Of a stretch of DNA of 45,642 nt, positions 1 through 29,276 are shown one piece after another. The translations under genes and the position numbers were made by a program. This DNA comes from a virus. Below the pieces are notes generated by a model. That model made no database searches. It saw nothing but the letters and a program-made list of their open reading frames with translations, and was not told the DNA's origin. Position 1 is the first letter of the stretch; each line of letters starts with the position of its first letter. The stretch spans positions 1-45,642 of IMG/VR virus record IMGVR_UViG_3300045391_001310; one strand, written 5' to 3'.

Positions 1-50
1 CATCAAAAACTATTTTAGATTATGAGGATATAATTATTTCGACATCAACT
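1..50. repeat. Terminal direct repeat: bases 1-50 are identical to 45593-45642, indicating a circular or permuted contig overlap
   Basis: Character-by-character comparison of both ends gives the same string: catcaaaaactattttagattatgaggatataattatttcgacatcaact. Confidence 0.95.
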
Positions 51-500
51 CCGACGACATTTGTTTCTGGTACAAAAACATTTTATGATATTTTACATAT
101 AAGTAAATCAGACGATACAACAGGGAATATTGTTATAGCTAACTCAGCCTCAACAACTATTTCTCAACTTCCTCCAACGATAAGAACGGCTAGATATAAG
201 GTTATGAAATTAGGGTTAATTCCTGACGACGCATATTCTATGCGTGTACTTTATAAGAAGACAGTTAATAGATTGGTTAATGATAATGATTATCCTTTTA
301 TTTCGGCGGATGAATTTATAGTTACGCATTCTGTGGCTTATGGATTAATGCAAGAAAAAGAAACCGAAGGTCGTGCAGCTGCAATGTTTCAGAAAGCCTC
401 AGACGCTTTACAGGTTTTATTAAGAACACAGAATAATAGACTTGGGCCAGATTTTCAACATAAAATTACTAACGCATTTATGGATTCACACAGACGATGA
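1..500 (+). CDS. C-terminal part of the junction-spanning ORF that starts at 45136 (318 aa in total); putative head-tail adaptor / tail tubular A-like virion protein
   Basis: The frame with codons at 3, 6, ... is open from base 1. It is continuous with the frame of 45136..45642 across the 50-bp overlap. Its stop TGA (498-500) overlaps the ATG of the next gene. The function is guessed only from its position just upstream of the nozzle-like gene. Confidence 0.45.
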   Translation, partial: SKTILDYEDIIISTSTPTTFVSGTKTFYDILHISKSDDTTGNIVIANSASTTISQLPPTIRTARYKVMKLGLIPDDAYSMRVLYKKTVNRLVNDNDYPFISADEFIVTHSVAYGLMQEKETEGRAAAMFQKASDALQVLLRTQNNRLGPDFQHKITNAFMDSHRR

Positions 501-2101
501 AGAAATTATTAATTATAGCTTTATTATTATTTAGTTCTAAAGCATACGCTCAAGAGGCTTTACAAAAAATAAGAATAAGTGATTTCTCTGGAGGTATGTA
601 TAGCAACGCTCTTCCCGATGTTATAGAGCCTAAATATGGGGCTTCTATGTCGAATGTTGTCTTGAGTAAGCCAGGACAACTTTCTAAAAGAAAAGGACAG
701 ACTTTATTTAATGTAGATACTGGAAGTACTCCTCATGTTGGTGTTGGTAGATTTGATCCAGACGCAAATACTTCTTATTTAGTTATTGCCTCTGGCACAT
801 CAGTCGCAAGATCACAGTCTAATGGATATATTTGGACTTTAGCTAATCCAGCAAGTCCTTTAACATCTGGGCAGAATACAGAGTTTGTTCAAGCTAATGA
901 TTTGCTTTTTGTATTAAATGGTTTTGATAATACATCTTGGTATAACGGTTCTCAATGGTTTCAAAGCACAACCTACCCAACATCCCCACCAGTAGCCACA
1001 ACAGGGGCTTGGTTAAATAATTATCTTCTTCTTGGTGGTGGGACTACCGAGAAAGATTGGTTATATATTTCAAATAACCTTGACCCTCTTACCTTTGATG
1101 CCGATGATATTATTAAGATTAATACAGGTGATGGCCAAAAAATACAGAAGATTGTTCCTTTCAAATTGAATGAAGTTGTTGTTTATAAAGAAAGAAGCGT
1201 ATTCATTGTAGATACCACTGGCGACCCCCCTTCAATATGTACGACAAATTGCTGGACAGTACAACCAGTTTCTAATTCTATTGGGACTATTGCTCCAAGA
1301 TCGGTAGTTAACTTAGGTAATGACCATTGGTTTTTATCTAGCGAGCCTATTGCTATTAGAAGCTTAGTGCGTTCTCAATTTGATAAGATTTTCGTAGAAA
1401 TGATTTCTGCTCCTATACAAGATATATTTGACAATACTGGCCCAATAGCCATTAATCGTACATATATATCTAAAGCTGCAGCTACAATATTTGGTAATAA
1501 ATATTTCTTAGCTATCCCAACAGGAACATCTACTGTTAATAATACTGTATTAGTATATGACTTTATTACTAAAGGTTGGTCTATTATTAGCGGATGGTAT
1601 CCTGCTGATTGGGTTGTTTTTGATGGTAGGCTATTTTATATTGATGCTACAGATGGGCGAGTATTAGAATGTCTTACAGGTAATATATCAGATTTTGGAA
1701 TTGGCCCAAGCTCTATAACTTCTCCAGCAACACCGATAGAGTTTGATTATATTACTAAGTCTATTGATTTCGATAATCCAGAAAATTTTAAAGAATTAGA
1801 TTCTATTGAGGTTGAATTTCAACCTACAGGAAGTTTCTCAGCAATAGTTTCTACAAATTTAGATGGCGGTGGATGGGCTTCCATTGGTTCTGTAAGTTTA
1901 GCTGCAAATTCTTTAACATTGCCAACAACATTGCCATCTTCTTTAGGTGACAGTGGTGTCGCTAGAAAAACATATCAATTAACAAGTAAAGGTTCTTTTA
2001 AAAAAATTCAAATAAGAGTTAACCAGAATGAGGCAGATCATCAAGCAATATTACAACGGATTACTGTATTCGCTCGTGTACGTCCCTGGAGGAGAGAATA
2101 A
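497..2101 (+). CDS. Tail nozzle / tubular protein B-like virion protein with an N-terminal Sec-type signal peptide
   Basis: ATGA overlap with the upstream ORF. The N-terminus is MKKLLIIALLLFSSKAYA|QE. It is followed by IRISDFSGGMYSN...N.....G.LSKRKG, which resembles the N-terminal signature of T7 gp12 as I recall it. The 534-aa size and gene order also fit. Confidence 0.5.
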   Translation: MKKLLIIALLLFSSKAYAQEALQKIRISDFSGGMYSNALPDVIEPKYGASMSNVVLSKPGQLSKRKGQTLFNVDTGSTPHVGVGRFDPDANTSYLVIASGTSVARSQSNGYIWTLANPASPLTSGQNTEFVQANDLLFVLNGFDNTSWYNGSQWFQSTTYPTSPPVATTGAWLNNYLLLGGGTTEKDWLYISNNLDPLTFDADDIIKINTGDGQKIQKIVPFKLNEVVVYKERSVFIVDTTGDPPSICTTNCWTVQPVSNSIGTIAPRSVVNLGNDHWFLSSEPIAIRSLVRSQFDKIFVEMISAPIQDIFDNTGPIAINRTYISKAAATIFGNKYFLAIPTGTSTVNNTVLVYDFITKGWSIISGWYPADWVVFDGRLFYIDATDGRVLECLTGNISDFGIGPSSITSPATPIEFDYITKSIDFDNPENFKELDSIEVEFQPTGSFSAIVSTNLDGGGWASIGSVSLAANSLTLPTTLPSSLGDSGVARKTYQLTSKGSFKKIQIRVNQNEADHQAILQRITVFARVRPWRRE

Positions 2102-3366
2102 TGTTTAAAAAGTTTTATTTATCTTTAATTTTATTGTTTTTAACCCATAACGCCTGGGCTTTACACGCCGAGACTTATTTATTATACGGCGATACATCTA
2201 CTTTAACAGCACAGAATTTGAATGGTAATTTTAACAATATTAGAAATGTTTTAAATGGTGGTCTTGATAATACAAATGCTGATACAGCAAGAGGTTTTAG
2301 ATTTATAGAAATTGTTAGTTCTCTACCAGCAGCAGGAAATCAAGGTCGAACAGTATTTTTAACAGCAGATAACACTTTATATTTTGATACTGGATCTGCT
2401 TGGATTCCTGTTGTAACTATAAGTACAGCTGGGGTTCAAGGTGATATGATTTACCATAATGGAACTAATTGGACAGTTTTACATAAAGATACAAATGCTA
2501 CTAGATATGTAGCTAATACAGGAACAAGTAATAATCCACAATGGGATAAAGTAGATATTGTTCAGGGTGGAAAATGGTTAGGTCAAACAGCAGGGGATAT
2601 AATTTTCGCAAGTTCATCTTCTGTTGTTTCAAGACTTCCTATTGGACAAGAAAATCAAGCATTAATTGTAAGCTCTAGCGGTTTGCCATCTTGGGGGTTT
2701 GCTTCTACAGCTACAGTTTATTCTACAGCAGGAACATATTCATTTACACCACAAACAGGAATAGATAAGGTTTATGTGACTATGTGTGGTGGTGGTGGCG
2801 GTGGAGGTAGTGGAGAACCTAATAATGGCGGTGGTGGTGGAGGTGGTGCAGCTTCTCTTATTAAACATGAGCTTAAAGTTGCAACAGCTTCTTCTTATAC
2901 CGTAGTTGTTGGAGCAGGTGGGGCAGGTGGAGTTGGTGGCCCACATACAAATGGGTCTAATGGTGGTTCGAGTAGTTTTGCAGGAACAACATCCCCATCA
3001 TCTTATACGATAACGACTAATGGTGGTAGCGGTGGTGTTAGCGGATTTGGTTCTGGTGATGGTGGAGCTGGCGGAACTGGAAATACAAGTCTAGCTGGGG
3101 TTGGTAGAGCTGCTGGAGTCGCTTATGTTTATGCAGGTGGTGCTGGTGGAAATTATGGGGGTGGAGCAGGTGGAAGTGGAACTACACAAGAAGGTGGAGG
3201 CGGTGGGGCTTCTTATTTAGTTGCTGCAGGAGGGGTTGGTAGTACAGGAACAGGAACTCCAGCGTCTCCAGGGTTTTGTTCTGGCGGTGGTGGCGGTGGT
3301 GGTTCAGATGGATCTTCTGGTGCAGCTGGAGGAAGTGGATTAGTAATAATTGAATATTATAAATAA
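2101..3366 (+). CDS. Tail fibre-like protein with a C-terminal glycine-rich domain and an N-terminal signal peptide
   Basis: TAATG overlap with the upstream gene. The N-terminus is MFKKFYLSLILLFLTHNAWA. It has GD(M/I)IY..G..W..L-type fibre repeats. The last ~200 aa are dominated by GGGGGG / GAGGAGG runs and end in GLVIIEYYK. Confidence 0.55.
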   Translation: MFKKFYLSLILLFLTHNAWALHAETYLLYGDTSTLTAQNLNGNFNNIRNVLNGGLDNTNADTARGFRFIEIVSSLPAAGNQGRTVFLTADNTLYFDTGSAWIPVVTISTAGVQGDMIYHNGTNWTVLHKDTNATRYVANTGTSNNPQWDKVDIVQGGKWLGQTAGDIIFASSSSVVSRLPIGQENQALIVSSSGLPSWGFASTATVYSTAGTYSFTPQTGIDKVYVTMCGGGGGGGSGEPNNGGGGGGGAASLIKHELKVATASSYTVVVGAGGAGGVGGPHTNGSNGGSSSFAGTTSPSSYTITTNGGSGGVSGFGSGDGGAGGTGNTSLAGVGRAAGVAYVYAGGAGGNYGGGAGGSGTTQEGGGGGASYLVAAGGVGSTGTGTPASPGFCSGGGGGGGSDGSSGAAGGSGLVIIEYYK

Positions 3367-3367
3367 T

Positions 3368-3859
3368 ATGATTGAATTAAGAAAACTAACAAAAGAAGAA
3401 ATTAATCAAATAATTATTGAAGCAGAATCTACTGAAACAAAGTTCTTATTAGATTTCTGTAATAAAGAAAAAATACATCCATATGATTTTATTGATAGTT
3501 GTTCTATAAAAAACACTGGATTAGTTATAGATAGTAGGCCAGTTTATTTTGCTTCTTTAATTGAAAATACGCTTGGTCAAATAGAGCTTTGGACGGTTGT
3601 TAATAGTAATGTAAAAGAAAAATTAACTGTTTCAAAATATTCTAAGAAAGTATTAAATGAATGGTTAAAAGAAATTGAAGAAATTTATGCAACTATGGGT
3701 AAGCATGATGAAACAAATATGAAATGGGTAGAATGGTTAAATTTTAAAAAAATAGGCGAAGATGCCAATTATATAACGTATTTAATTAAAGGAGAATTAA
3801 ATGGGCTGCGGAAGCAAAACACCATCTTACACCCCACCACCAGCACCAGCGCCGATTAA
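3368..3859 (+). CDS. Hypothetical virion-module protein (weak GNAT-like C-terminus)
   Basis: The ATG at 3368 lies just after the upstream stop; the track start at 3350 is a TTG. The C-terminal ...MKWVEWLNFKKIGEDANYITYLIKGE resembles the end of a GNAT fold, but weakly. Confidence 0.4.
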   Translation: MIELRKLTKEEINQIIIEAESTETKFLLDFCNKEKIHPYDFIDSCSIKNTGLVIDSRPVYFASLIENTLGQIELWTVVNSNVKEKLTVSKYSKKVLNEWLKEIEEIYATMGKHDETNMKWVEWLNFKKIGEDANYITYLIKGELNGLRKQNTILHPTTSTSAD

Positions 3860-4649
3860 TTATCAGCAGGATATTTTAAATCCTACTATTTCGGCTTATC
3901 AAACTAATACGCCTCAAGCGTTTGGAGCTAGAGAGGGTGCATTAAGCACATTGTCTAATCCACAATCAACAATGGATTATTATAATGCTTTTCAACCTAC
4001 TTCTTTTGAGCAGGCATTAGGTAATCAATATTTCCAAAATATTTATCCTGATGTACAAAAACAAATAGCTGGGAGGTTATCTTCGGCAGGGATAGCTTCA
4101 TCTCCGATTCTAGCTAGATTAAGCGGTAAGGCTTACGGAGATTTAGGAGTACAAATAGGGCAATATTTAAGTAATCAAGCTAACGATAGAGCTACAGGCT
4201 CTTTAAATGCCAGATTAGGAGTTAACCCATGGTCTGATATTAGTCCAATGGCAAATCAAGGATTACAAAATGCACAATGGAATCAACAACAACAAGCTCA
4301 ATATGCTCAACAACAAGCTATGGCACAATACCAGCAACAAATGAATTCATATAATCAGAGCGCAGGAATAAAGAGTTTATTGGGTACTGGTTTGGGTGCA
4401 GGATTAGGAGCTTTATTTGCTTTACCGACTGGTGGCTTATCTTTAGCTGCTGGAGCTGGGTTAGGGTCAAGTATTGGTGGAGCAGGAGCACAATTATTTG
4501 GTGGTGGACAAGCTCCTATTAGTTTAGGCCAAGGACTAGGTATAGCAAATATGTTTCAACCAGGCGGTCTATCTTCATTAGGTAGTCCACAAAATGTATT
4601 TAGCTATGGGAATCCTTATTCGTTTGCACAAGCACCATATACAAAATAG
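3801..4649 (+). CDS. Internal virion / ejection protein candidate (Pro-rich N-terminus, Q-rich middle, Gly/Ala-rich hydrophobic C-terminus)
   Basis: A GGAG sits 6 nt upstream of the ATG. Sequence features: MGCGSKTPSYTPPPAPAP; NAQWNQQQQAQYAQQQAMAQYQQQ; GLGAGLGALFALPTGGLSLAAGAGLG (glycine-zipper-like). It lies upstream of the SLT-containing protein. Confidence 0.4.
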   Translation: MGCGSKTPSYTPPPAPAPINYQQDILNPTISAYQTNTPQAFGAREGALSTLSNPQSTMDYYNAFQPTSFEQALGNQYFQNIYPDVQKQIAGRLSSAGIASSPILARLSGKAYGDLGVQIGQYLSNQANDRATGSLNARLGVNPWSDISPMANQGLQNAQWNQQQQAQYAQQQAMAQYQQQMNSYNQSAGIKSLLGTGLGAGLGALFALPTGGLSLAAGAGLGSSIGGAGAQLFGGGQAPISLGQGLGIANMFQPGGLSSLGSPQNVFSYGNPYSFAQAPYTK

Positions 4650-4658
4650 GAGAATAAA

Positions 4659-5852
4659 ATGGCAGGGCAAGATATATTTGGATTTCCACAAGTAACAACT
4701 GGAATTGAACATTTAAACAATAATATAGGAACTGTTGGAGATTATTTTGGTCAACAGGTTGCTCAACAACAAGCTATTAAACAAGCCATTGCATTAGAAA
4801 AAGCTAAACAAGATTTAGAACTACAGCTTAATGCTAGAAGAATGCAACAATTTGGGCAATTCTTTTCTCCACAGACTGCTATGGGGAATGGATTTGGAGA
4901 TACAAATGCTCAACCTATACAACAATTTGGTTCTGTTCCAGCTCAAGAATCTTCTTATCAAAAAATGAATAGAGGTGTCCAAGAAAAGTTTGGGCAAGGA
5001 TTTCAATTTAATCCTAATGCTATGTTTGGGGATAAAGAAGTTATACAAAAAAATACTAATCCTGCTAATGATATAAGTAATCAAACTCCAGAGGAAGTTA
5101 GGTCTAATTTACAACAAACAAATCCTTCATACTTAAATTATCTTGATAAAGTAGGTACTGGAGAAATTCAAATAGGTGGGAGATCAACTAAACAACAACA
5201 AAAAATATTGCAAGATGTTGCTTATATTAATCCAGGATTAGACCAAAGCAAAATCCAAGCTAGATATAAAACAAGAAATGATTTTACTAGCGGTAAAGAA
5301 TCTTTACAAATTAAATCATTAAATACAGCTGTGAATCACCTTGGAGAATTAAATGATTTAATTCCTAAATTAAGTAATACAAATATGCAATTTATAAATG
5401 CTCCTAAAAATTTTACTGCTAAACAATTTGGCGATCCTGCTATAACTAGATTTGAAACAGTCAAAAACGCTTTAGCTGGAGAATTAGCAACAATATTTAA
5501 AAATACTGGTGGGACGGATACTGAAATTAAAAATATTGGAGCAACAATAGATGCTTCTGGTTCTCCAGAACAATTAAAAGGGAATATTCAGCAAGCAGTT
5601 AATTTAATGTATGGTCGTTTAAATGCTATTCAAGATAAATGGAAAAATAGTTTTGACCAACCAAATGACCCAGAGTTTCCTATAATTTCAGATAGGTCTA
5701 AAAATATTATTGCAGGATTAGGATTAAATGAAAACTCTGGACAAGTTCAAAATAATTCTCAACAAAATTATTTGCAAGAAGGACAAACAGCTACTAATCC
5801 AACAACAGGTAAAAAGATAATTTATAAAGGTGGACAATGGCAAGCTCTGTAA
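4659..5852 (+). CDS. Internal virion / ejection protein candidate
   Basis: A TAGGAG Shine-Dalgarno precedes it. It is a 397-aa Q/N-rich protein sitting between two ejection-type genes. There is no catalytic motif. Confidence 0.4.
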   Translation: MAGQDIFGFPQVTTGIEHLNNNIGTVGDYFGQQVAQQQAIKQAIALEKAKQDLELQLNARRMQQFGQFFSPQTAMGNGFGDTNAQPIQQFGSVPAQESSYQKMNRGVQEKFGQGFQFNPNAMFGDKEVIQKNTNPANDISNQTPEEVRSNLQQTNPSYLNYLDKVGTGEIQIGGRSTKQQQKILQDVAYINPGLDQSKIQARYKTRNDFTSGKESLQIKSLNTAVNHLGELNDLIPKLSNTNMQFINAPKNFTAKQFGDPAITRFETVKNALAGELATIFKNTGGTDTEIKNIGATIDASGSPEQLKGNIQQAVNLMYGRLNAIQDKWKNSFDQPNDPEFPIISDRSKNIIAGLGLNENSGQVQNNSQQNYLQEGQTATNPTTGKKIIYKGGQWQAL

Positions 5853-7930
5853 ATTTACCAGATGGTTTTGTATTAGATAACCAACCAAAAGGAAATAATA
5901 TACCTGATGGTTTTGTACTAGACAATAATCAAAAACCAAGTTTAATTCAAGACGCCTTTACTCCGATTAGTAAATTAATAACTGGAAAATCCGTTGGAGA
6001 AAGAACTGATTTTTTAAATAAAAGAGGGAATCAGAACGTTGCTTTATCCGATTTAAATACGCAGAGAGATTTACAGAAACAATCTGCAAGCGGAAAACTT
6101 CCTATAACTACTCCTAAAACACCTGGTCAATTTGGAATGTTTATGAATCAATTACCAAGCGCTACTGCTCAAGCTGTAACTAATATGGCAGATTTAACAC
6201 CATTCGACGTAGCGACTGCTGGCGCAACAAAAGGACTAGCAAACACTGGTTTTGGTAAATTTTTTGGTAATGTTATAACTAAAGATTTAACTCCTGGATT
6301 TGCAAAACCAATCGAAGATAAAATATTTGATTTATATAATTCTGCTATAGGAACAAAGATTAAAAATCCTGGCGATTTAAAGAACATAAAATCATCTAGG
6401 GTAAATGTTGTTAAAACAATATCTGAAAATTTACCAGAAATAAAACTTCCTAATCCTGACACTGGAGTTTTGGAATCAAGAGCACCACAAAATAGGTCAG
6501 AAAATTTAGATGCTTACCAACAAGCAAAACAATTAATTTGGAAAAAAGCAACCGATCTATCTCAAGGGGCAACAGAATCTGGAGCACAGATAAATTTATC
6601 AAAATTAGTGGATAGTGCGTTATTGGACGCAAAAAAAAATATTGGGGAAGTAGCGTTAGAAACAGACAAAAATTTGGCCGTATCATTGGAAAAAGAAGCA
6701 AACGATATAAAATCTTTTGGAAGTATTAACCCTAGCCAAGCACAAGATTATTTAAAATCTCTTAATGATAAAATCAAAGTTCTATATAAAAGCAATGTTC
6801 CAGTTGATTATTCTGTAAAAGATTTATTAAGTAATTTAAGATTTAAACTTGCAAACGAGACAGATAATGTTATTGAAAGTACTTTAAATAAATCCGGATA
6901 CAAAGATTTAAGAAAACAATATGCGGATTTGAGGGGTTCTCAAAATGAGATATTAGGTTCAGCTAATAAATATTTAAGACAGGCTGGCGGACAATCAGGT
7001 ACTCACCCTATTGTTGATTTATGGTCATTAGAAGAATTAATGCAAAGCGGTGGTCATTTATTAACTGGTAATCCTTTAGCTGCTGCTGGAAACTTAGGAA
7101 GGGCTGCTGCAATTAAAGCTTCTAGCAAATTACTAGATTTTATGAGAAGTCCAGATAAAAAGATTTCTCAAATGTATGAGTTAGCACAGAAATATGTTAG
7201 ACCAACATCTTCTGTTGTTCACACACCTGAAATATTAAATACTCGACAATCTCCTCAACAAATATTAGGAATCCCAGAACGTAAATTTGGGGCGTTGCCA
7301 TCACCAAAAGATGTCCCATATAATCCTAGTGGTCAAAGAGTTCCTGGTGGTAAACCTATTATCACTCCAAGCGCTGAACAGAATCCTGTTATCCCAGGTG
7401 AAAATCCAATTAAGAAATTAGATTATAAAACTATTATCACTCCACCGCCAACTAAAGAAATCAAGGGTGGAATGACTAAATCAAGTGAAAGAAAATTTGG
7501 AGAAATTTCTACTCCTAAAGTATTAGGTGCTGGTGCAGTTGGAGTTGGATTATCTTCTCAAGCCAATGCTAATGAAAATATTGATATGAATAAAATATTC
7601 AATATTGAAAGTTCAATGAATCCTAAAGCAGAGAATAAGAAATCTGGGGCTATTGGGTTGGGGCAAATTACACCTGTTGTCTTAAAAGAATGGAATAATA
7701 TTAATAAAGAAAAATATAGTAAAAATGATCTTTATGATCCAAAAGTAAATTCTAAAATCAGTGATTGGTACATAAATAAACGTATTCCTGAGATGTTAAA
7801 TTATTATAAAATTCCAGACAATACTAAAAATAGATTAATCGCTTATAATGCAGGAATTTCTTATTTAATTAAGAATAAAAAACTTCCTCAAGAAACGATT
7901 AATTATATTAAAAAATACGAGAAGAAATAA
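5837..7930 (+). CDS. Internal virion protein with a C-terminal lytic transglycosylase (SLT) domain
   Basis: The C-terminus reads NIESSMNPKAENKKSGAIGLGQITPVVLKEW...YDPKVN...AYNAG. This matches the classic E-S / GLxQ / AYNxG SLT pattern. The central region is Pro-rich. Confidence 0.8.
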   Translation: MASSVNLPDGFVLDNQPKGNNIPDGFVLDNNQKPSLIQDAFTPISKLITGKSVGERTDFLNKRGNQNVALSDLNTQRDLQKQSASGKLPITTPKTPGQFGMFMNQLPSATAQAVTNMADLTPFDVATAGATKGLANTGFGKFFGNVITKDLTPGFAKPIEDKIFDLYNSAIGTKIKNPGDLKNIKSSRVNVVKTISENLPEIKLPNPDTGVLESRAPQNRSENLDAYQQAKQLIWKKATDLSQGATESGAQINLSKLVDSALLDAKKNIGEVALETDKNLAVSLEKEANDIKSFGSINPSQAQDYLKSLNDKIKVLYKSNVPVDYSVKDLLSNLRFKLANETDNVIESTLNKSGYKDLRKQYADLRGSQNEILGSANKYLRQAGGQSGTHPIVDLWSLEELMQSGGHLLTGNPLAAAGNLGRAAAIKASSKLLDFMRSPDKKISQMYELAQKYVRPTSSVVHTPEILNTRQSPQQILGIPERKFGALPSPKDVPYNPSGQRVPGGKPIITPSAEQNPVIPGENPIKKLDYKTIITPPPTKEIKGGMTKSSERKFGEISTPKVLGAGAVGVGLSSQANANENIDMNKIFNIESSMNPKAENKKSGAIGLGQITPVVLKEWNNINKEKYSKNDLYDPKVNSKISDWYINKRIPEMLNYYKIPDNTKNRLIAYNAGISYLIKNKKLPQETINYIKKYEKK

Positions 7931-8214
7931 TGGCATTAGACTACGTCGGTAGAGCCCCAATTATAATTAATAAAACATTAACATTGGCTAATACTTGGTA
8001 TCAGGTAACTGCAGAGATTCGTGGCCCACGAAAATGGTTTTTAAAAGCACAGGAAGCGACCGACAATTCATTTGATTTGGCTTTTGCTGACGAACAGACT
8101 GAAATATTGACAAATTCTGGAATTGGATGGGCTTTTGATGGTTGTGAGATACCAAATATATGGTGTAGAAGCTCGACGGCTGGGACTGTTATAGAGCTTT
8201 GTTATTGGAACTAA
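7930..8214 (+). CDS. Hypothetical small protein
   Basis: A 94-aa ORF with TAATG coupling at both ends. Confidence 0.55.
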   Translation: MALDYVGRAPIIINKTLTLANTWYQVTAEIRGPRKWFLKAQEATDNSFDLAFADEQTEILTNSGIGWAFDGCEIPNIWCRSSTAGTVIELCYWN

Positions 8215-11200
8215 TGAAAAAATTTATTCTTTCCATTTACTTTATCTTAATTTCGACTTTATCTTTTGCTCAAGGATCTGGTCTTGGGACAATGGCAGTT
8301 GATAAAGCTTCTAAGATTAAGACAGATACATCTTCTTTTAATCATAATCTTTCTTCCTCAGATAATACGGTTCAAAAAGCTTTAGATACATTAGATAACA
8401 TGACTACAACAGGTGGTAGTGGAGCTTCTGCTATTACTGGTTTGACTGATGTTTCGACGGATTATACAAATACAAAAATATTAATAGCTGATGGAGATAA
8501 TTTTAATGGAGTCATACCTTCTGGTGATATAACAATTACTTCGACAGGAGTTACAGATATTGGAACATCAAAAGTTGGGAGTACGGAATTAATCTCAACC
8601 GCAGTAACGGCTGGGTCTTATACAACAGCAGATATTACTGTTGATTCTGACGGTAGAATTACATCGGCAGCTAATGGAGCAGCAGCAGGGTCTTCAACTG
8701 GCGGTTGGCAAGAAGAATATCCTATTGTTCATTTAATTAATGCTGGAGATAATGTTGGAATTGGCACAAGTACACCTGCACAACAATTAGAAATAACTAA
8801 AAATTTCAGACTTCCAGCTTCTACTTCAACTGTAGGTAATATTTATAAAGGTACATCATTATTTTTGAGTAATTTTGGTACAAATAATACATTTTTGGGA
8901 GTTGGGGCAGGCAATTTAACAGTCTCTGGGATAGCTAATATAAATATTGGTGATGGGGCTGGCGCTGCATTAACAAGTGGTGGGGATAATATATGTATCG
9001 GAACAGGTTCAAGTTTCCCAGCTTGTAATACGATGACTGATGGTGCTCAGAATACTTGTATTGGTGGTGGAGCGTGTAGTAGAAAAACATCCCAAACAAG
9101 TGATACTTGCGTTGGTCAAACAGCGTGTTCAAATAGCAATATAAATGATGGTGTTATCATCGGAAGAAATGCTCAAGTTGGGGTATCTACTCAAAGCAAT
9201 GGTAGTATTGTTATCGGAAGTGGTAGTGCTTCGGCTACAGGTACTGGGGCAATGTGTATTGGATATGGGTGTGTGGCAACAGCAGCCCATCAGGGATTGA
9301 TTGGAGCTGCTAATTCAACTGGAGTTATAACTGATTTGTATTTAGGAAATGGTGTAACCAATACAACGCCATCTTCTATCGTAGTTAATGCTTCTGGAGG
9401 TAGTGGTTCAAATGACAATGGGGCAAATTTATCAATAGCTGCAGGAAAAGCTACAGGAAATGCTATTGGTGGGTCAATAAATTTTCAAACATCAAATAAA
9501 GGTTCAAGTGGTTCAACTTTACAATCTTTAACTACAAAATTAAGCATTGCTCCTGATGGGCCAATTCAAGCAGCTTCTTCATTTACAGCTGCAGGGTATA
9601 TTACTTCTACAGCTAATGGATTTGTATTCCCAGACGCAACAATTCAAACTACAGCAGCTTCTTCAAGTCTTACAGGAATTACTGATGTAACAAATGCCAA
9701 TATTTTAGTTGCTAATGGAGTAAAGTTTCAATCAGTTGCTTTTGGTGGAGATGTAACAATAACAACGGCTGGTGCAACAAACGTCGGGAAAATTAATGGT
9801 GTTGCTTATAATGGAGATCCACTTACTCAATATGCTTTACTTGCTGGACGATCTGGTGGTCAAACAATTAATGGTGGTTTGACTGGAACAGACACATTAA
9901 CCCTTCAAGCCAATGCTGATTCTGCACCAAGAACAACAAGAATATCTACAGATATGTTAAGTGTATTTAATGGCACTTATACCTATCCAAGTGGTTCAGC
10001 AAGTAGTTTTGCTTCAATACTTTCTTCTCCTATAATTACAGGGATCGACGTTGTAAACCCATCAATATCTTCAATAACTGTTCAACCATCTTTTACTTAT
10101 ACAGTTGCACAAAATTGGGGATTAAGCCCCAGAAGTGGTTTAAATTTCGCTCCAACAATAAATAGCAATTTATCATCTGGTGGCACAGATTCAATGATAT
10201 TCCAAGGTGTGAACGGACAACCTAATTTTAATGGTACTGTTGGGAATAGATTTATTTCAAATCTTTGGGGTGTTGGTGGTGATCCAAGAATATTGGGGAG
10301 TTTGGGTGGGGCTATAACAGCTATTGATTTCAGAGCCAGAGGAAGCACAACATCTGGAACTCAAGTTACTAATTTTACTGCTTTTTATAATGATGCAATT
10401 ATAGCCTCTGGTTCTAATGTTACTAACTATACAGGGATTAAAATTACACCTTCATTAGCTGCTAGTTCAGTCACAAATTTTACAGCGTTAGACATTGACT
10501 CACAAACAGCTCCTACAGGAACGAATATAGCCATAAAACAATCTGGTGGTTTTATGACCAATCAATTACAGGGAAAACTAAAGGTTGGAGCGGTTTCAAC
10601 ACCAACAGAATCTTTGGATGTGTCTGGAAATATATTAACAAATGGATCTTTATCTGCTACATCAATGACATCAACTGGATCATTAACATTTAGTGGTGTA
10701 ACTTCAGATATATTGACAGGAACAAATGAACATCTTGCTTTAATGCCCAATGGTACAGGAAATGTTGGAATAGGTACGACTACGCCAGATCAAAAATTAA
10801 AAGTTGTTGGAACCATAGAATCTACAACCGGAGGATTTAAATTTCCTAATCAACAAACAATGGCAGCCCCAACGCTTACTGGATTATCAGATGTTGGAAG
10901 TGCTGCTATTACTGCTGCTAATGTATTGGTTGCAGATGGAGCTAAATATCAATCTGTCTCAATGAGTGGTGATATTACTATGAGTTCAGCAGGTGATACT
11001 CAGATTGGAGCAGATAAAGTCGGTTCCCCAGAAATTGTCTCTGATTCGGTTGGGTCAAGCGAAATAAAAAGTTCTGGAGTAATTGCTGCGCAATATACAT
11101 CAGCAACAGTGACTGTTGATGCTGACGGAAGAGTAACTAATGCAATGGCTGGTAGCCTTACAGGATTAACGGATGTATCGATTGCTGCGACGACGGGTTA

Positions 11201-11534
11201 TACCGTTGGAAGTATTTTGGTTGCAGATAGTACAAAATTTGTCAGCAACAGAACGACGATGACGGTAAGAACAGATACGGGAAATGTTGGTATCGGGATA
11301 ACTGCTCCCGCACAAGCTTTAGATGTTTCTGGATCAATCCAATTTACTGGCAGTTTATTAGGAACAAATACTAATTCATTAGGATGGACTGTTCAATCAG
11401 CAACTAATCAAGCTTGTAATACAACTTGTACTTCTGCTTGTGTCATAGGAATGAATACTGGTGTAAACCCAAATGCATTTTTAGCATGTTCAGATACAAC
11501 AACGGATTCTTGTCTTTGTGCAGGATCATCATAA
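8214..11534 (+). CDS. Large tail fibre (1106 aa) with a signal-peptide-like N-terminus, YadA-head-like repeats, LTGLTDV modules and a Cys-rich C-terminal tip
   Basis: The ATG at 8214 makes a TAATG overlap; the track start at 8199 is a TTG. The N-terminus is MKKFILSIYFILISTLSFA|QG. It has NVGIGT(S/T)TP..L motifs three times and an N.(C)IG..A repeat block. ITGLTDV...GRITSA modules are shared with 40623..42464. It ends NQACNTTCTSACV...CSDTTTDSCLCAGSS. Confidence 0.8.
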   Translation: MKKFILSIYFILISTLSFAQGSGLGTMAVDKASKIKTDTSSFNHNLSSSDNTVQKALDTLDNMTTTGGSGASAITGLTDVSTDYTNTKILIADGDNFNGVIPSGDITITSTGVTDIGTSKVGSTELISTAVTAGSYTTADITVDSDGRITSAANGAAAGSSTGGWQEEYPIVHLINAGDNVGIGTSTPAQQLEITKNFRLPASTSTVGNIYKGTSLFLSNFGTNNTFLGVGAGNLTVSGIANINIGDGAGAALTSGGDNICIGTGSSFPACNTMTDGAQNTCIGGGACSRKTSQTSDTCVGQTACSNSNINDGVIIGRNAQVGVSTQSNGSIVIGSGSASATGTGAMCIGYGCVATAAHQGLIGAANSTGVITDLYLGNGVTNTTPSSIVVNASGGSGSNDNGANLSIAAGKATGNAIGGSINFQTSNKGSSGSTLQSLTTKLSIAPDGPIQAASSFTAAGYITSTANGFVFPDATIQTTAASSSLTGITDVTNANILVANGVKFQSVAFGGDVTITTAGATNVGKINGVAYNGDPLTQYALLAGRSGGQTINGGLTGTDTLTLQANADSAPRTTRISTDMLSVFNGTYTYPSGSASSFASILSSPIITGIDVVNPSISSITVQPSFTYTVAQNWGLSPRSGLNFAPTINSNLSSGGTDSMIFQGVNGQPNFNGTVGNRFISNLWGVGGDPRILGSLGGAITAIDFRARGSTTSGTQVTNFTAFYNDAIIASGSNVTNYTGIKITPSLAASSVTNFTALDIDSQTAPTGTNIAIKQSGGFMTNQLQGKLKVGAVSTPTESLDVSGNILTNGSLSATSMTSTGSLTFSGVTSDILTGTNEHLALMPNGTGNVGIGTTTPDQKLKVVGTIESTTGGFKFPNQQTMAAPTLTGLSDVGSAAITAANVLVADGAKYQSVSMSGDITMSSAGDTQIGADKVGSPEIVSDSVGSSEIKSSGVIAAQYTSATVTVDADGRVTNAMAGSLTGLTDVSIAATTGYTVGSILVADSTKFVSNRTTMTVRTDTGNVGIGITAPAQALDVSGSIQFTGSLLGTNTNSLGWTVQSATNQACNTTCTSACVIGMNTGVNPNAFLACSDTTTDSCLCAGSS

Positions 11535-11542
11535 GGAGAATT

Positions 11543-11950
11543 ATGAAAAAATTTTATTTATTAATAACCATTTTGTTGACCTCAACAATATGCTATTCAG
11601 ATGAACAACCAACAGTGGTTGATACTTCAATAACAAAATATTCTGATACAGAAATACAAATCACAAAAACTTGGTCAACGACAACAAAACACATTTCTTT
11701 AAAATCTCTATATACAACAAAAGACGTTTATGAAAAACAAATAGTTGATTTACAAAATAAAATAAATGAAACACAAAACAATATTCTCGCATTTTCTGGT
11801 CTTGAAGCATTTAAAGAAGATGAACAGAAATCAAAAGATGACCAGGATATTTATATAAAACAAATAGCACAAATACAAAAACAAAAAGATTCTTTGGATG
11901 AAATGATTAATAAAGCAATAGAAATTGGGGTTGTCCAGGGAGATTTATGA
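11543..11950 (+). CDS. Secreted coiled-coil protein (135 aa)
   Basis: An AAGGAG sits 5 nt upstream of the ATG at 11543, so the track N-extension from 11426 was rejected. The N-terminus is MKKFYLLITILLTSTICYS|DE, and the C-terminal half is K/E/Q-rich. Confidence 0.6.
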   Translation: MKKFYLLITILLTSTICYSDEQPTVVDTSITKYSDTEIQITKTWSTTTKHISLKSLYTTKDVYEKQIVDLQNKINETQNNILAFSGLEAFKEDEQKSKDDQDIYIKQIAQIQKQKDSLDEMINKAIEIGVVQGDL

Positions 11951-12240
11951 TATTTATATTAATTTTTTTATTAATTTGTTCAGATTGTTTTGCTTTTAAT
12001 TGTATAAGCACAGAAAATTATTATGAATGGAATAAACAAGAAAAAAGAATGGATAAAATAGAACGAAAAACTATTGCCAAGAATTTTTATAATTATAGAG
12101 AAGCAGAAAAGTTCGCAAAGATTAAAAACATCCCAATAGAAAATATAATGAAAGATAAAGATATAAAAATGTGGGTAGTTGTAGAAAATCCTTATGCAGA
12201 AGATTATGTTTGTGCTGGATACGAAGATACTAATTATTAA
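11947..12240 (+). CDS. Small protein with a hydrophobic, signal-like N-terminus
   Basis: ATGA overlap with the upstream gene. The N-terminus is MIFILIFLLICSDCFA|FN. Confidence 0.5.
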   Translation: MIFILIFLLICSDCFAFNCISTENYYEWNKQEKRMDKIERKTIAKNFYNYREAEKFAKIKNIPIENIMKDKDIKMWVVVENPYAEDYVCAGYEDTNY

Positions 12241-12254
12241 CAACATGGGAGGGT

Positions 12255-12524
12255 GTGGTGGAAGAATCACTTAAACAGCTTTGGACTTTATGTATTTGGT
12301 TTTTTGGAATTAGCACAACTGTAACTTTAGGACTTTTTGGATGGTTAATAAATATAACCTCTAAAATTAATGTTGGGGAGTCTATTATAAAAAACATGAA
12401 TACTTTAGTTAAAGATGTTGACGATATTAAGAATGCTTTAATCGGGGATTATGATAAAAAGGGTTTAGTAACAAGACATTACGAATTAGAAAAAAGAGTT
12501 GAAGAGTTAGAGATTAATAAATAA
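12255..12524 (+). CDS. Type-II-like membrane protein (N-terminal TM plus coiled coil); holin or i-spanin-like candidate
   Basis: GTG start. The TM segment is LWTLCIWFFGISTTVTLGLFGWLINI, followed by a charged helical tail. Confidence 0.4.
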   Translation: MVEESLKQLWTLCIWFFGISTTVTLGLFGWLINITSKINVGESIIKNMNTLVKDVDDIKNALIGDYDKKGLVTRHYELEKRVEELEINK

Positions 12525-12595
12525 AGGAAGTTACCTGGCGACTATTGGTTGCTATAAAGCTAAGTACGAGAATGTTATTTAGTGTAACTTCCTTT
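12523..12595 (+). repeat. Perfect 12-bp inverted repeat (AAAGGAAGTTAC / GTAACTTCCTTT) closing a 49-nt loop, followed by TTTTAAAA
   Basis: 12523-12534 pairs with 12584-12595. It lies in one of the few non-coding gaps of the late operon. Confidence 0.6.
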
Positions 12596-12601
12596 TAAAA
12601 T

Positions 12602-12745
12602 ATGAATAAATGTTCTAATTGTAATAGTTATTATGCAAGATTGGCCTCAATTTATAAAATATCTAATAAATTAGAGAGAAGAACTTATTATTGTCCGATT
12701 TGTCATAGCAGCTGGACTGAAGAAAAGGAGATAAAAAATGAATGA
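12602..12745 (+). CDS. Zinc-ribbon mini-protein (47 aa), not in the ORF track
   Basis: Sequence MNKCSNCNSYYARLASIYKISNKLERRTYYCPICHSSWTEEKEIKNE, with a CxxC...CxxC pattern. Its stop overlaps the next ATG. Confidence 0.5.
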   Translation: MNKCSNCNSYYARLASIYKISNKLERRTYYCPICHSSWTEEKEIKNE

Positions 12746-12962
12746 ATCAAGCATTTTTGGGATTAGCGCCAGGGCTTATATTGTATTTATTCTAATATCA
12801 ACATTTTGCGTTATGTCTTTTATGGCTAAACCATTAGATGAAACATTTAAGAATTTAATTATTATGTGCGTAAGTTTCTATTTTGGAAATAAAACAGCTA
12901 GTAACGGAGATTCTAAATATAACACAACAGAACAACCAAAAAAGGAGAGTACAAATGTCTAA
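12738..12962 (+). CDS. Holin-like small membrane protein (2 TM)
   Basis: An AAGGAG Shine-Dalgarno precedes it. It has two hydrophobic segments (AYIVFILISTFCVMSFM and LIIMCVSFYFG) and a polar C-terminal tail. Confidence 0.45.
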   Translation: MNESSIFGISARAYIVFILISTFCVMSFMAKPLDETFKNLIIMCVSFYFGNKTASNGDSKYNTTEQPKKESTNV

Positions 12963-13116
12963 GAAAAGAATTATTATTACAATAGTAGGTGGAGCTTTTA
13001 CTGGAGGATTAGCAGCTGCGTCTAGCTGTTTCCCAGGGAATATCGCTGTTACGGCTATTTTTGCCTCAGCTACAGGGCTTGTGGGTGCGCTAGTAGCGTA
13101 CTTCGGCGGAGAATAG
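12955..13116 (+). CDS. Small Gly/Ala-rich two-helix membrane protein (53 aa); holin/antiholin-like
   Basis: An AAGGAGAG Shine-Dalgarno sits upstream of the ATG at 12955. Sequence: MSKKRIIITIVGGAFTGGLAAASSCFPGNIAVTAIFASATGLVGALVAYFGGE. Confidence 0.5.
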   Translation: MSKKRIIITIVGGAFTGGLAAASSCFPGNIAVTAIFASATGLVGALVAYFGGE

Positions 13117-13119
13117 AAT

Positions 13120-13359
13120 ATGGGAATAATCGATGGATTACTTTCTGGATTTCTTGGGCCATTAGGTAAAAAAGCAGCACAGTGGCTTCCAAGTAAAGAG
13201 GGATTAATGAGGAGAAAAATAGCTGATTATGAAAAACAACTTAAAGAATTACAAGCTGGGAAGTGGGATGCTCATGCTAGTTTTGAGCATAATCGTATTA
13301 ACGAGCTCTTGCGCCAAGAAAGAGTCAATCTCGATACCTACCTCTCCACCAACAGTTGA
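13120..13359 (+). CDS. Coiled-coil protein; i-spanin-like candidate (weak N-terminal hydrophobic segment)
   Basis: It starts MGIIDGLLSGFLGPLG and then has a charged helical region (RRKIADYEKQLKELQ...). It contains an out-of-frame lipoprotein ORF. Confidence 0.35.
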   Translation: MGIIDGLLSGFLGPLGKKAAQWLPSKEGLMRRKIADYEKQLKELQAGKWDAHASFEHNRINELLRQERVNLDTYLSTNS

Positions 13360-13435
13360 GTGGGGTAAAAAAGGTGAAGTACCTAAAAGCGTAATATATA
13401 ATTATGATTGGATTTGTTATCAGAAAGTTCCTTAA
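13229..13435 (+). CDS. o-spanin-like lipoprotein, overlapped (+1 frame) with 13120..13359
   Basis: The sequence MKNNLKNYKLGSGMLMLVLSIIVLTSS|CAKKE has a charged n-region, a hydrophobic core and an S-S-C lipobox-like site. The mature part is short and Pro-containing. It fills what would otherwise be a 90-nt gap. An alternative start is at 13268. Confidence 0.5.
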   Translation: MKNNLKNYKLGSGMLMLVLSIIVLTSSCAKKESISIPTSPPTVEWGKKGEVPKSVIYNYDWICYQKVP

Positions 13436-15257: not shown

Positions 15258-15887
15258 TTATCTTCCCCTTATTATTTTCTTAGCTGGTATACCAACATAA
15301 ACACCTGGCTCTTTTATATCTCTAATAACAACTGAATTAGCTCCAATAGTTACATTGCTACAAATATTTATATTATTGATGATTGTACAAGAAGCCCCAA
15401 GAAAACAAAAGTTACCAATCTTAACCCTACCAGCCAAAGTGCTACCAATAGAGATATGGTTGTGATCTCCAATCCTAACATCATGCTCTATTATAGCCCC
15501 AGTATTTATAATGTTATTGTTCCCGATAACAGCTCCAGCATTAATGTAAGCAAAAGCAAATATTTGATTGCTTATACCTAATTTAACCCTCTCTTCCACA
15601 ATAGCATTAGAATGTACAACATTCCCATCCAATAGATTCTTTTTATATCTATCAAACAAATCCCCTCTTTTAACATTATCCCCAATACTTAAAAATATCT
15701 TTTTCTTTTTTAAATCATTTGGCAATAAACCAATAATTTTGTGTCCAAATATTGCTTCATTGGGCTTAATGGCTTTGTCATAAATTCCTTTAATAATAAA
15801 TAAATTATCTTCAAGTAAATTAATCACACTACTGGTATGACTTCCAGCCCCAACAAGATAAACTTCTTTAAAAAATGATTGTCTCAT
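15258..15887 (-). CDS. NeuD/PglD-family sugar N/O-acetyltransferase (left-handed beta-helix)
   Basis: The N-terminal Rossmann-like segment is VYLVGAGSHTSSVINLL..IIKGIYD. It is followed by hexapeptide repeats (INAGAVIGNNNIINTGAIIEHDVRIGDHNHISIGSTLAGRVKIGNFCFLGASCTI...). Confidence 0.85.
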   Translation of the reverse strand: MRQSFFKEVYLVGAGSHTSSVINLLEDNLFIIKGIYDKAIKPNEAIFGHKIIGLLPNDLKKKKIFLSIGDNVKRGDLFDRYKKNLLDGNVVHSNAIVEERVKLGISNQIFAFAYINAGAVIGNNNIINTGAIIEHDVRIGDHNHISIGSTLAGRVKIGNFCFLGASCTIINNINICSNVTIGANSVVIRDIKEPGVYVGIPAKKIIRGR

Positions 15888-24522: not shown

Positions 24523-24524
24523 TT

Positions 24525-24764
24525 TTAAATTAATCTCCAAACATCTTCCCTTGTTTCTCCATACCCACGGAATCTTTTTTCTTGATCAGTTAATCTTCTT
24601 ATCTTCCCTTCCTGTCCTAACTGTCTGCATATCCTATCTGCTGTATTACAGTAGATACTTGTACCAAAGGCAATAACCTCGCTTGTTCGTGCGAATTCTT
24701 TTTCTTTTAGCCAAACTTCTATTTGTTCTTTTTTAGATAGTTTGTTGGCGTAAAGTTCTAGCAT
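24525..24764 (-). CDS. Small winged-helix-like protein (79 aa)
   Basis: The ATG at 24764 is preceded by a perfect AAGGAGG. Confidence 0.5.
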   Translation of the reverse strand: MLELYANKLSKKEQIEVWLKEKEFARTSEVIAFGTSIYCNTADRICRQLGQEGKIRRLTDQEKRFRGYGETREDVWRLI

Positions 24765-28865: not shown

Positions 28866-29276
28866 ATGAAAATCATTCCACTGGGGGATCGAATTTTAGT
28901 TAAAAGACGTACCGTAGGGGAGAAGTTAGGGACAAGTGGCTTATTGGTCTCAGCTGATGTTACTAAGGATAGGCCAACAGATTTAGCTGATGTAGTTAAG
29001 ATACCGGATCATAGTTTTGGGGACGAACAGTTAATTAATAATGCAGCTGCGATTATTACATCATTAACTACAAAAGCATTTGAAGGTGATGCAGAAGCGT
29101 TAAGAGCGTTGATTGATTTTAATTTGTTTTTAAAGATTAAAAGTATTAAACCAGGTGATACTGTGATGATTAGCAAATACATTGGGACGGATTTTAATAC
29201 GCAAGATAGCCAAGAATTAATAACTTTAGTTCGTGGCGATGATATTATGTGCATTTTGAAAGAGGATAAGAAATGA
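28866..29276 (+). CDS. groES: GroES-like co-chaperonin (Cpn10) with a ~45-aa internal insertion
   Basis: IIPLGDRILVKRRTVGEKLGTSGLLV aligns with the GroES start IRPLHDRVIVKR.E.E.K.aGGI. The C-terminal IKPGDTVMISKY.G......QELITLVRGDDIMCIL aligns with VKVGD.V.f..y.G......e.l.m.e.DILA. Confidence 0.7.
   Translation: MKIIPLGDRILVKRRTVGEKLGTSGLLVSADVTKDRPTDLADVVKIPDHSFGDEQLINNAAAIITSLTTKAFEGDAEALRALIDFNLFLKIKSIKPGDTVMISKYIGTDFNTQDSQELITLVRGDDIMCILKEDKK

Follow-up and report, generated by a model that had tools for sequence, protein, structure and literature searches.

Tailed bacteriophages, to our knowledge, assemble their tails in the cytoplasm in every case studied. Virion proteins bearing signal peptides are exemplified by pIII and pVIII of Ff phages, which are held outside the cytoplasm until assembly at the membrane, where the single-stranded DNA is extruded through the envelope. 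In podoviruses, the tail hub or nozzle (Pa223 gp59, VP1, P22 gp10, Sf6 gp8, SU10 and T7 gp12) is a cytoplasm-made protein built from an interrupted β-propeller and an apical insertion domain, and its gene lies directly after that of the head-to-tail adaptor and before those of the ejection proteins. The N terminus of the Pa223 hub sits within the adaptor-binding apical domain, far from the tip, and P22 gp10 stays a monomer until it is assembled (preprint 10.1101/2025.06.11.659172). On the side of protein export, the Q-rule is a feature of Bacteroidota signal peptidase I (SPase I) (PMC5837995, Bochtler et al. 2018), and Porphyromonas gingivalis prophages encode Q-rule signal-peptide proteins that have been read as host-surface modifiers (PMC10367356). 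Here, we describe a clade of uncultured podophages in which the hub begins with a predicted Sec/SPase I-type leader in place of the customary hydrophilic N-terminal arm, and we consider what this implies for tail assembly.

The window, that is, the whole stretch of DNA analysed (45,642 nucleotides; IMG/VR record IMGVR_UViG_3300045391_001310), is a complete, circular 45.6-kb genome in which bases 45593–45642 repeat bases 1–50 (a 50-bp terminal overlap). The genome is AT-rich (~34% GC), with no tRNAs found, and encodes a tailed-phage set including a terminase, an SU10-type portal and an HK97-type capsid. The gene for the 318-aa adaptor wraps round the circular origin, its 5′ part at 45136–45642 (+) and its 3′ part at 1–500 (+) when the open reading frame is traced on the circularised genome. 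Its product scores 41.3 bits against Pfam SU10_adaptor (cut-off 27), substantiating the adaptor candidate that a first-pass annotation of this DNA had placed upstream of the nozzle. The adaptor stop codon (TGA, 498–500) overlaps the nozzle start (ATG, 497–499) as ATGA, the arrangement by which the start had been considered fixed; translation of the nozzle gene is coupled to that of the adaptor, genes for fibre and ejection proteins come next, and an SLT-domain internal protein is also encoded downstream. This portal–capsid–adaptor–hub–ejection protein module, with the hub directly downstream of the adaptor, has the same order in relatives L003–L007, and both synteny and leaders are kept in L003–L007, L009 and L010; an integrase is encoded by some relatives. 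A spanin-like pair at 13120–13435 (+), assigned by gene architecture (a 79-aa open reading frame with an embedded, out-of-frame lipoprotein frame at 13229–13435, lipobox LTSSC), points to a two-membrane (diderm) host and lytic release, and neither an endolysin nor a large-hole holin was recognised in the genome.

The nozzle gene (497–2101, +) encodes a 534-aa precursor with the N terminus MKKLLIIALLLFSSKAYAQEALQKIRISDFSGGM. Searches with its sequence against Pfam, NCBIfam and PDB sequences matched nothing useful, so identification required a comparison of folds. The AlphaFold (AF2) model (pLDDT 89.6, pTM 0.87) has its best Foldseek match in Pa223 (9nwi_Y; E = 2e-24, TM 0.72/0.75), followed by VP1, P22 gp10, Sf6, SU10 and T7 gp12 (E = 2e-24 to 1e-14). 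At the sequence level, tblastn aligns the nozzle to P22 gp10-like 'phage stabilization protein' genes at 29% identity over 92% of the query (E = 2e-39), and PHROG 3287 (virion structural protein) is matched at E = 2e-11. Profile alignments to thousands of nozzle homologues start at about profile position 22–34, so that the T7 gp12-like signature discerned at first pass is a real superfamily motif. The predicted mature nozzle (551–2098, +; 516 aa) comprises the β-propeller and apical insertion domain characteristic of podovirus hubs and is strongly constrained, with 56% identity and 50 invariant columns. We conclude that the open reading frame is, as had been suspected, a genuine podovirus nozzle and the sole tail-hub gene of this phage. 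The notion that a protein of nozzle fold has been recruited to a periplasmic job and is no longer the virion hub is barely credible: β-propellers are common in the periplasm, and BamB and YCF48 are among the weak structural matches, but the fold match is full length and takes in both the propeller and the apical domain specific to hubs (TM 0.72–0.75), and the gene is coupled to the adaptor, precedes the fibre and ejection genes and is the single candidate hub in a complete genome.

The first 18 codons of the gene (497–550, +) encode a signal-peptide-like leader, MKKLLIIALLLFSSKAYA, with cleavage predicted before Gln19. Signal-peptide calls throughout are based on our own rule-based test (n-region charge, hydrophobic core and the −3/−1 rule) together with conservation. 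The K-rich n-region, hydrophobic core and AxA-type site described at first pass are borne out as an MKK n-region of charge +2, an 11-residue core (LLIIALLLFSS) and A-Y-A at −3 to −1, with Gln at +1; in the AF2 model the leader forms a lone helix (residues 2–19) of lower pLDDT. The next in-frame ATG, GTG or TTG is codon 34, past the first conserved strand and indeed beyond the gp12-like signature, and no alternative start was found within the first 40 codons in relatives L003 and L006. Because no other usable start codon precedes codon 34, the leader must be translated; a leaderless isoform from an internal start is rejected, there being no start codon by which to bypass the leader. The leader has all the sequence features of a cleavable Sec/SPase I signal, and from these we infer export. 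Other routes were considered and rejected: a Tat signal, as the n-regions are mostly MKK or MRK without the S/T-R-R-x-F-L-K consensus; a lipoprotein (signal peptidase II) signal, as the nozzle leader in the window has no Cys; and type IX cargo, as the Pfam/NCBIfam C-terminal sorting domain is absent from the nozzle and from the leader-bearing proteins scanned.

The first-pass annotation had proposed checking whether homologues keep the leader and had overlooked that it is a clade-wide trait. The rule-based test is positive for 116–117 of 120 close nozzle homologues (49–67% identity) and for 4 of 132 distant full-length members of the nozzle superfamily. In 117/120 homologues the n-region bears a net charge of +1 to +4. 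Ala occupies position −1 in 94/117 (Ser, Gly, Cys or Thr in the others), Ala, Ser, Leu, Val and Cys predominate at −3, and Gln is found at +1 in 79/117 (68%). Leaders are rich in Leu (23%), Phe (13%) and Ile (11%), and their h+c region, with a median length of 16 residues (range 9–21), would be too short for a stable membrane anchor. Pairwise identity is 28% in the leader compared with 56% in the mature part (1891 pairs); family-wide, the predicted leader is conserved as a property and not as a sequence. The leaderless distant homologues start with an acidic 'MP..LDDP' arm, and profile alignments to them begin at the predicted mature part. Thus, unlike the known hubs, made in the cytoplasm, and 128 of the 132 distant homologues, with their hydrophilic arm, this clade has a Sec-type leader, which, with only 4/132 distant homologues possessing one, is derived and clade-specific. 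Judged by these features, its resemblance to a signal peptide is far beyond chance.

The Ala(−1)/Gln(+1) site fits the Bacteroidota Q-rule, and the leaders share with Q-rule SPase I substrates (PMC5837995) an MKK n-region, a core rich in Leu, Ile and Phe, Ala at −1 and, in 68% of family members, Gln at +1; those substrates are cellular envelope proteins, whereas the cargo here is a core component of a tailed-phage virion. They also resemble the P. gingivalis prophage proteins (PMC10367356) in being phage-encoded with Bacteroidota-type SPase I sites, and differ in that the latter are of unassigned function and the leaders here are on a tail hub and fibres. This Q-rule signature points to a host that may be a member of the Bacteroidota. 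No cultured or isolate relative was found with the nozzle, portal or capsid. A scan of a genome collection returned one related locus, in a metagenome-assembled genome (MAG) with the implausible label Methanobacteriota, and another relative carries the MAG label Obscuribacterales; these conflicting labels of related contigs probably reflect binning.

Leaders also occur on tail fibres and several late proteins here and in relatives, a point missed at first pass; in this genome they mark the two fibres (adjacent and long) and about six further late proteins. The tail-fibre-like protein encoded next to the nozzle (2101–3366, +; 421 aa) has the leader MFKKFYLSLILLFLTHNAWA ahead of LHAE and a C-terminal glycine-rich domain. 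It matches Pfam Gly_rich_2 (E = 1e-17) and PHROG tail-fibre families; its model reaches a pLDDT of only 65, so that of its Foldseek matches (Bxb1 tail tip and cyanophage Pam3 fibre) only that to the glycine-rich domain is usable. Its leader is kept in homologues within the clade and absent from distant ones. In the long-fibre position, a 1106-aa protein (8214–11534, +) carries the leader MKKFILSIYFILISTLSFA ahead of QGSG, and the L006 counterpart, likewise leader-bearing, is a Peptidase_S74 fibre. A conserved 117-aa protein encoded just after the capsid gene (35715–36068, +; leader ending in VYA before QVSN) is kept with its leader in L003, L004 and L006, and a conserved 125-aa protein encoded upstream of the adaptor (44338–44715, +; VYA before QSRG) has leader-bearing homologues in L004 and L003. 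The remainder are three accessory late proteins with weak domain matches only (40617–44162, +), of 615 aa (40617–42464), 173 aa (42461–42982) and 405 aa (42945–44162), and two small proteins with hydrophobic leaders (11543–12240, +), of 135 aa (11543–11950) and 97 aa (11947–12240). Gln occupies +1 in 4/9 leader-bearing proteins of this genome; we found no conserved cysteine pattern separating leader-bearing from other proteins.

By the same rule-based test, no leader is present on the portal, capsid, scaffold, adaptor or ejection proteins of this genome, nor on two putative spike proteins (37381–39821). In two leaderless relatives 0/22 genes were positive, and the fibre in L010 has a leader that its counterpart in L001 lacks. 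Among 26 late proteins of Bacteroides phage crAss001, the test was positive only for gp27, a lysis protein, and the idea that signal peptides are a general habit of Bacteroidota phage structural genes was accordingly rejected for crAss001. As the same type of leader is found on unrelated tail proteins, with homologues elsewhere lacking it, we favour a generic targeting signal over a structural helix specific to the nozzle. A leader devoid of targeting function could be a false resemblance to a signal peptide, or an AT-rich, weakly structured 5′ region favouring translation initiation; the genome is indeed AT-rich, as are the codons for Leu, Ile, Phe and Lys, and there is a precedent for dismissing predicted signal peptides on capsid proteins of phages (PMC10367356). 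This reading is nevertheless very unlikely, leaving unexplained the conserved −3/−1/+1 site, the n-region charge and the restriction to external tail proteins, while the highly expressed capsid, portal and scaffold genes have no leader and the feature is absent from 128/132 distant homologues and from the crAss001 structural proteins.

On balance, the most likely reading, to which we assign a probability of roughly 45%, is that the tail hub and fibres are exported and joined to adaptor-capped heads only at lysis. The nozzle precursor would be targeted to SecYEG and translocated unfolded; cleavage would occur after Ala18, with Gln19 possibly cyclised to pyroglutamate, and the cleaved nozzle would wait in the periplasm as a monomer alongside the fibres. 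That a hub monomer could be stored follows from the behaviour of P22 gp10, which remains monomeric until assembly. Heads would meanwhile be packaged with DNA in the cytoplasm and capped by the adaptor ring, and the half-products would meet when holin/spanin action breaches the inner membrane, allowing hub and fibres to add onto the adaptor; a conserved WaaL/PglL-type ligase encoded in the same gene module may act as a modifier of the cell envelope or of the exported components. Tail completion would span two compartments, because the adaptor and the two putative spike proteins are without a leader. The likeness to Ff pIII and pVIII lies in virion proteins with (here predicted) signal peptides; unlike Ff, this is a terminase/portal phage in which DNA packaging must be cytoplasmic. 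We agree with the first-pass annotation that an exported or tethered nozzle would be very unusual: a literature search, of incomplete coverage, turned up no nozzle or tail hub described as bearing a signal peptide. Several points count against export. In P22, DNA is lost from heads that lack gp10/gp26, so capping by the adaptor alone may leave heads unstable; assembly in the brief interval around lysis would need to be efficient; and the genome has no recognised endolysin or large-hole holin.

These difficulties of two-compartment assembly would be avoided if the leader were instead an inner-membrane tether, uncleaved or transiently inserted, that localises or delays tail assembly, for example by preventing premature hexamerisation, or if it were a helix retained in the virion. 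The nozzle N terminus is predicted to be helical, and membrane-associated steps are established in other phage assembly pathways, such as T4 head initiation. We nonetheless think this unlikely. By the positive-inside rule, the N-terminal lysines would place the mature domain in the periplasm and not in the cytoplasm; an h+c region with a median of 16 residues is short for a stable anchor; the strongly conserved Ala(−1)/Gln(+1) would be purposeless without SPase I cleavage; and the same leader is present on unrelated fibres. In Pa223, moreover, the hub N terminus is at the adaptor interface and not at the membrane-facing tip, and from that position far from the tip a retained leader helix would miss the host membrane.

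A different use of export could be envisaged in which most of the nozzle and fibre serves a non-virion role, such as superinfection exclusion, a decoy or modification of the envelope or receptor, and a minor unexported fraction builds virions. Exclusion and conversion proteins are commonly exported by phages, the genome holds envelope-glycan genes (the WaaL/PglL-like ligase and a NeuD/PglB/VioB acetyltransferase), and some relatives have the integrase noted above. Against this stand the single nozzle gene with no internal start for a leaderless isoform, the seeming fragility of failed export as the source of an essential six-copy virion part, and a mature domain as strongly constrained as structural hubs typically are (56% identity, 50 invariant columns); we regard such dual use as decidedly improbable.

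That over 100 diverged phages have predicted leaders on their hub and fibres suggests that at least one lineage breaks the rule of cytoplasmic assembly. If the export reading is true, this would be the first extracytoplasmic tail morphogenesis in a bacterial tailed virus, with morphogenesis split between cytoplasm and periplasm and virion completion coupled to lysis. How hub-less heads keep their DNA would then become a question, as would the role of the ligase embedded in the morphogenesis module. Possible payoffs of export would include oxidative folding, protection by pyroglutamate or glycans, concealment from cytoplasmic immune sensors and avoidance of premature triggering. In practical terms, these genes would be mislabelled by annotation pipelines for which a signal peptide speaks against a virion role, and the Q-rule signature gives a hint, from sequence alone, of which phylum an uncultured phage infects.

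A broader picture would be that of a two-compartment virion in a clade probably infecting Bacteroidota: DNA-filled, adaptor-capped heads would form in the cytoplasm, while hub and fibres, and perhaps further external proteins, would be Sec-exported, cleaved in the periplasm, given pyroglutamate termini and perhaps glycosylated by the phage's own WaaL/PglL-type ligase before being joined to the heads at lysis; we consider it possible, if doubtful. Its glycan component turns on a polytopic membrane protein that is conserved inside the morphogenesis module (36110–37315, +) and belongs to the WaaL/PglL (Wzy_C) superfamily of periplasm-facing glycan ligases. The protein scores 29.9 bits against Pfam Wzy_C, slightly under the cut-off of 31.7, and a profile search matches WaaL (7tpg, 2.9e-13) and an oligosaccharyltransferase (9rmk, 1.5e-9). 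All 34 of its homologues carry PF04932 and lie on phage-sized contigs, with no named bacteria among the matches. Invariant residues are R239 and H315/H317/N318/D319/E322, the last group forming an HxHND...E loop motif. Leader-bearing proteins show no enrichment of the Bacteroidota O-glycosylation sequon D-[ST]-[AILVMT] (z = −1.5), so a link between the leaders and glycosylation gains no direct support. The protein resembles the WaaL O-antigen ligase and the PglL O-oligosaccharyltransferase in its polytopic topology and HxHND...E motif, and differs from them in belonging to a family found only in phages, whose gene has a fixed place between those of the capsid and the adaptor; its acceptor may be lipid A-core or protein. 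Its gene occupies the same position in L003–L007.

The 534-residue product of the ORF at 497–2101 (+), with the N terminus MKKLLIIALLLFSSKAYAQEALQKIRISDFSGGM, has no match by sequence search in Pfam, NCBIfam or the PDB sequences. A tblastn search led to P22 gp10-like 'phage stabilization protein' genes (29% identity), and the AlphaFold2 model (pLDDT 89.6, pTM 0.87; 62 input sequences) has Pa223 as its best PDB match (E = 2e-24; TM 0.72/0.75), with VP1, P22 gp10, PhiM1, Sf6 gp8, SU10, GP4, T7 gp12 and the crAss001 muzzle also among the best, every one of them a podovirus tail hub. On the basis of the tblastn match, the model and its best matches, we consider the predicted assignment as nozzle secure, bearing out the homology to T7 gp12-like proteins proposed in the first-pass annotation. 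The adaptor candidate proposed upstream was likewise recovered, as a 318-residue protein above the cut-off for Pfam SU10_adaptor, encoded from 45136 to 500 (+) across the circular junction. Because positions 1–50 and 45593–45642 are an identical 50-bp direct overlap, the window represents one entire genome of 45,592 bp, circular or terminally redundant; it also spans the full length of its JGI contig. Also present are genes for a large terminase, an SU10-type portal and an HK97/Mu gpT-type capsid protein, and 3′ of the nozzle gene lie those for a fibre-like protein rich in glycine, for three proteins without a leader (one an SLT-domain internal protein) and for a 1106-residue protein; the arrangement is that of a standard podovirus morphogenesis module. 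By both fold and synteny the protein belongs to the podovirus hub superfamily, and its Sec-type leader sets it apart from characterised podovirus hubs, none of which has one. An exapted nozzle fold, a hub-like protein recruited to another role, is a very improbable rival reading. The nozzle ends in ...PWRRE (window ~2081–2098), in which W531, R532 and R533 are invariant or nearly so across the leader-bearing clade; L001 and L002, relatives without a leader, do not have this terminus, which may be a clade-specific adaptor contact.

The nozzle ATG overlaps the upstream stop codon as ATGA, and the sole other in-frame ATG, GTG or TTG in codons 1–40 is codon 34, past the first conserved β-strand; the nozzle genes of two related loci, L003 and L006, have none in their first 40 codons. 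The leader must therefore be translated, as the first-pass annotation had held, and a leaderless isoform made from an internal start is impossible. Its resemblance to a signal peptide also stood up to a rule-based test of n-region charge, hydrophobic core and the −3/−1 rule: a Lys-rich n-region of charge +2 and an 11-residue Leu/Ile/Phe core precede A-Y-A, with Gln at +1. Among 120 metagenomic nozzles (49–67% identity), 116–117 are positive, so that homologues do keep the leader; among 117 leaders, 94 have Ala at −1 and 79 have Gln at +1, and the median predicted cleavage position is 20. A preponderance of SPase I substrates with Gln at +1 is reported to be specific to Bacteroidota (PMC5837995). 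By sequence comparison, we thus show that the nozzle N terminus is a translated leader with conserved signal-peptide form. A membrane tether is a less probable reading of the leader: the median length of the h- and c-regions together is 16 residues, not enough for a stable membrane anchor, and, judged by analogy with Pa223, a retained N-terminal helix could not reach a host membrane. Leader identity among homologues is only 28%, versus 56% in the mature protein, a disparity that is the behaviour of a targeting signal rather than of a structural element; a non-functional resemblance to a signal peptide is an improbable reading.

Searched with a nozzle profile, 1.8 billion representative proteins yielded 6,513 relatives. 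Among the best 150, a hydrophobic N terminus is confined to the close clade and four distant homologues (P0141, P0150, P0206 and P0237), which argues that the leader is a derived trait substituting for the N-terminal arm; 128 of the 132 full-length distant relatives in this set carry an acidic 'MP..LDDP..D' arm, and two GenBank relatives are leaderless. P0237 represents a different route to a hydrophobic nozzle N terminus, as a transmembrane-like segment precedes an acidic 'LYNDLLDE' arm that is kept rather than replaced.

The window has Sec-type leaders on four more proteins, all encoded on the + strand: the post-nozzle fibre (starting at 2101), the 1106-residue protein (8214), a 117-residue protein 3′ of the capsid gene (35715) and a 125-residue protein 5′ of the adaptor (44338). 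Beyond these, another five late proteins begin with a hydrophobic leader; four are rule-positive, and the fifth, ORF 11947–12240, fails for want of n-region charge. A spanin-like lipoprotein comes in addition. Leaders are absent from the portal, scaffold, capsid, adaptor and ejection proteins, and from 21 of 22 early-strand genes. The relatives L003, L004/L005 and L006/L007 carry leaders on the same genes and share the order capsid, small leader-bearing protein, Wzy_C membrane protein, adaptor, nozzle, fibre; a 989-residue Peptidase_S74 fibre of L006 also begins with one. The glycine-rich domain of the post-nozzle fibre resembles virion fibre/tail-tip proteins of Bxb1 and cyanophage Pam3 (weak model, pLDDT 65), and its homologues bear leaders inside the clade and none among distant ones. 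Downstream tail genes are also leader-bearing in L009 and L010, more distant leader-bearing nozzle lineages. As controls, 0 of 22 genes were rule-positive in leaderless relatives and 1 of 26 late proteins in Bacteroides phage crAss001, the lysis protein gp27. Judged from these predicted leaders, we show the same signal on external tail proteins besides the hub.

The hub fold and synteny are known; new here is a podovirus hub with a Sec-type leader, and the literature searched contained no report of a signal peptide on a nozzle or tail hub. What comes closest is a note on P. gingivalis prophages, which describes proteins that follow the Q-rule and have no assigned function (PMC10367356). There is a real chance, at a probability of roughly 0.3, that the leader-bearing nozzle marks a new assembly pathway. 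In the mechanism that we tentatively favour, the nozzle would be exported by Sec and cut after Ala18, and periplasmic hub and fibres would join adaptor-capped heads after inner-membrane breach. Storage as a monomer is plausible because the Pa223 hub N terminus is part of the adaptor-binding apical domain and P22 gp10 is a monomer before assembly (10.1101/2025.06.11.659172). Counting against this mechanism, no precedent was found, heads lacking a hub are possibly unstable, and the adaptor and two putative spikes are leaderless. A less probable reading is dual use, in which an exported pool of nozzle and fibre protein serves a second purpose. The adjacent paralogues at 37381–38475 and 38475–39821 (+), both leaderless, share a near-identical N terminus (MATHITNAT.LQNMNLN...DNDIDLTG) and may be alternative tail spikes; GLUG-motif matches are weak and below cut-off in the first and clear in the second, and both lie inside a ~7-kb segment missing from L004 and L006.

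WaaL/PglL-type enzymes work at the periplasmic face of the inner membrane, and a morphogenesis module is an unusual location for such a ligase. A polytopic Wzy_C-superfamily protein, a predicted WaaL/PglL-type glycan ligase specific to phages, is nevertheless encoded at 36110–37315 (+), identified by profile matches and an invariant motif, and its gene is kept between capsid and adaptor, with small leader-bearing neighbours, in every relative examined (L003 7039–8208, L004 7259–8512, L006 7712–8854). All 34 homologues are on phage-sized contigs, with R239 and an HxHND...E motif invariant, and the family profile matches the WaaL O-antigen ligase 7tpg (2.9e-13) and the oligosaccharyltransferase 9rmk (1.5e-9). 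Its fixation beside predicted exported tail proteins is suggestive; as the leader-bearing proteins show no enrichment of the Bacteroidota O-glycosylation sequon, a link between ligase and tail proteins is speculative. The phage's second glycan-related gene encodes a NeuD/PglB/VioB-family sugar N-acetyltransferase (15258–15887, −; TIGR03570, 177.9 bits, above cut-off). Glycosyltransferase and methyltransferase clusters lie just 5′ of the adaptor–nozzle pair in L010 (69–4635) and 5′ of the nozzle gene in L001 (2065–3883), both of them more distant relatives, roughly where the window has its Wzy_C gene, which hints at virion or envelope glycosylation as a recurring theme of this phage group.

No endolysin was recognised in the window other than an SLT domain in the 697-residue internal protein (5837–7930). 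Small holin-like membrane ORFs (12255–13116) adjoin a spanin-like layout, in which a lipoprotein ORF (13229–13435, +; lipobox LTSSC) lies out of frame within a 79-residue ORF (13120–13359). The first putative ejection protein (window 3801–4649, +; L004 12752–13621; L006 14004–14834) has a conserved N terminus in the three genomes, where Met-Gly leads into a stretch rich in Pro and Ala (MGCGSKTPSYTPPPAP, MGLFGGKKAPTINIPAPP, MGKNAPTYNPPAP). A C5 DNA methyltransferase is encoded on the early strand (23578–24540, −; PHROG 363, E = 2e-62), and the gene for a GroES-like co-chaperonin, also present in L006, stands between those for terminase and portal (28866–29276, +).
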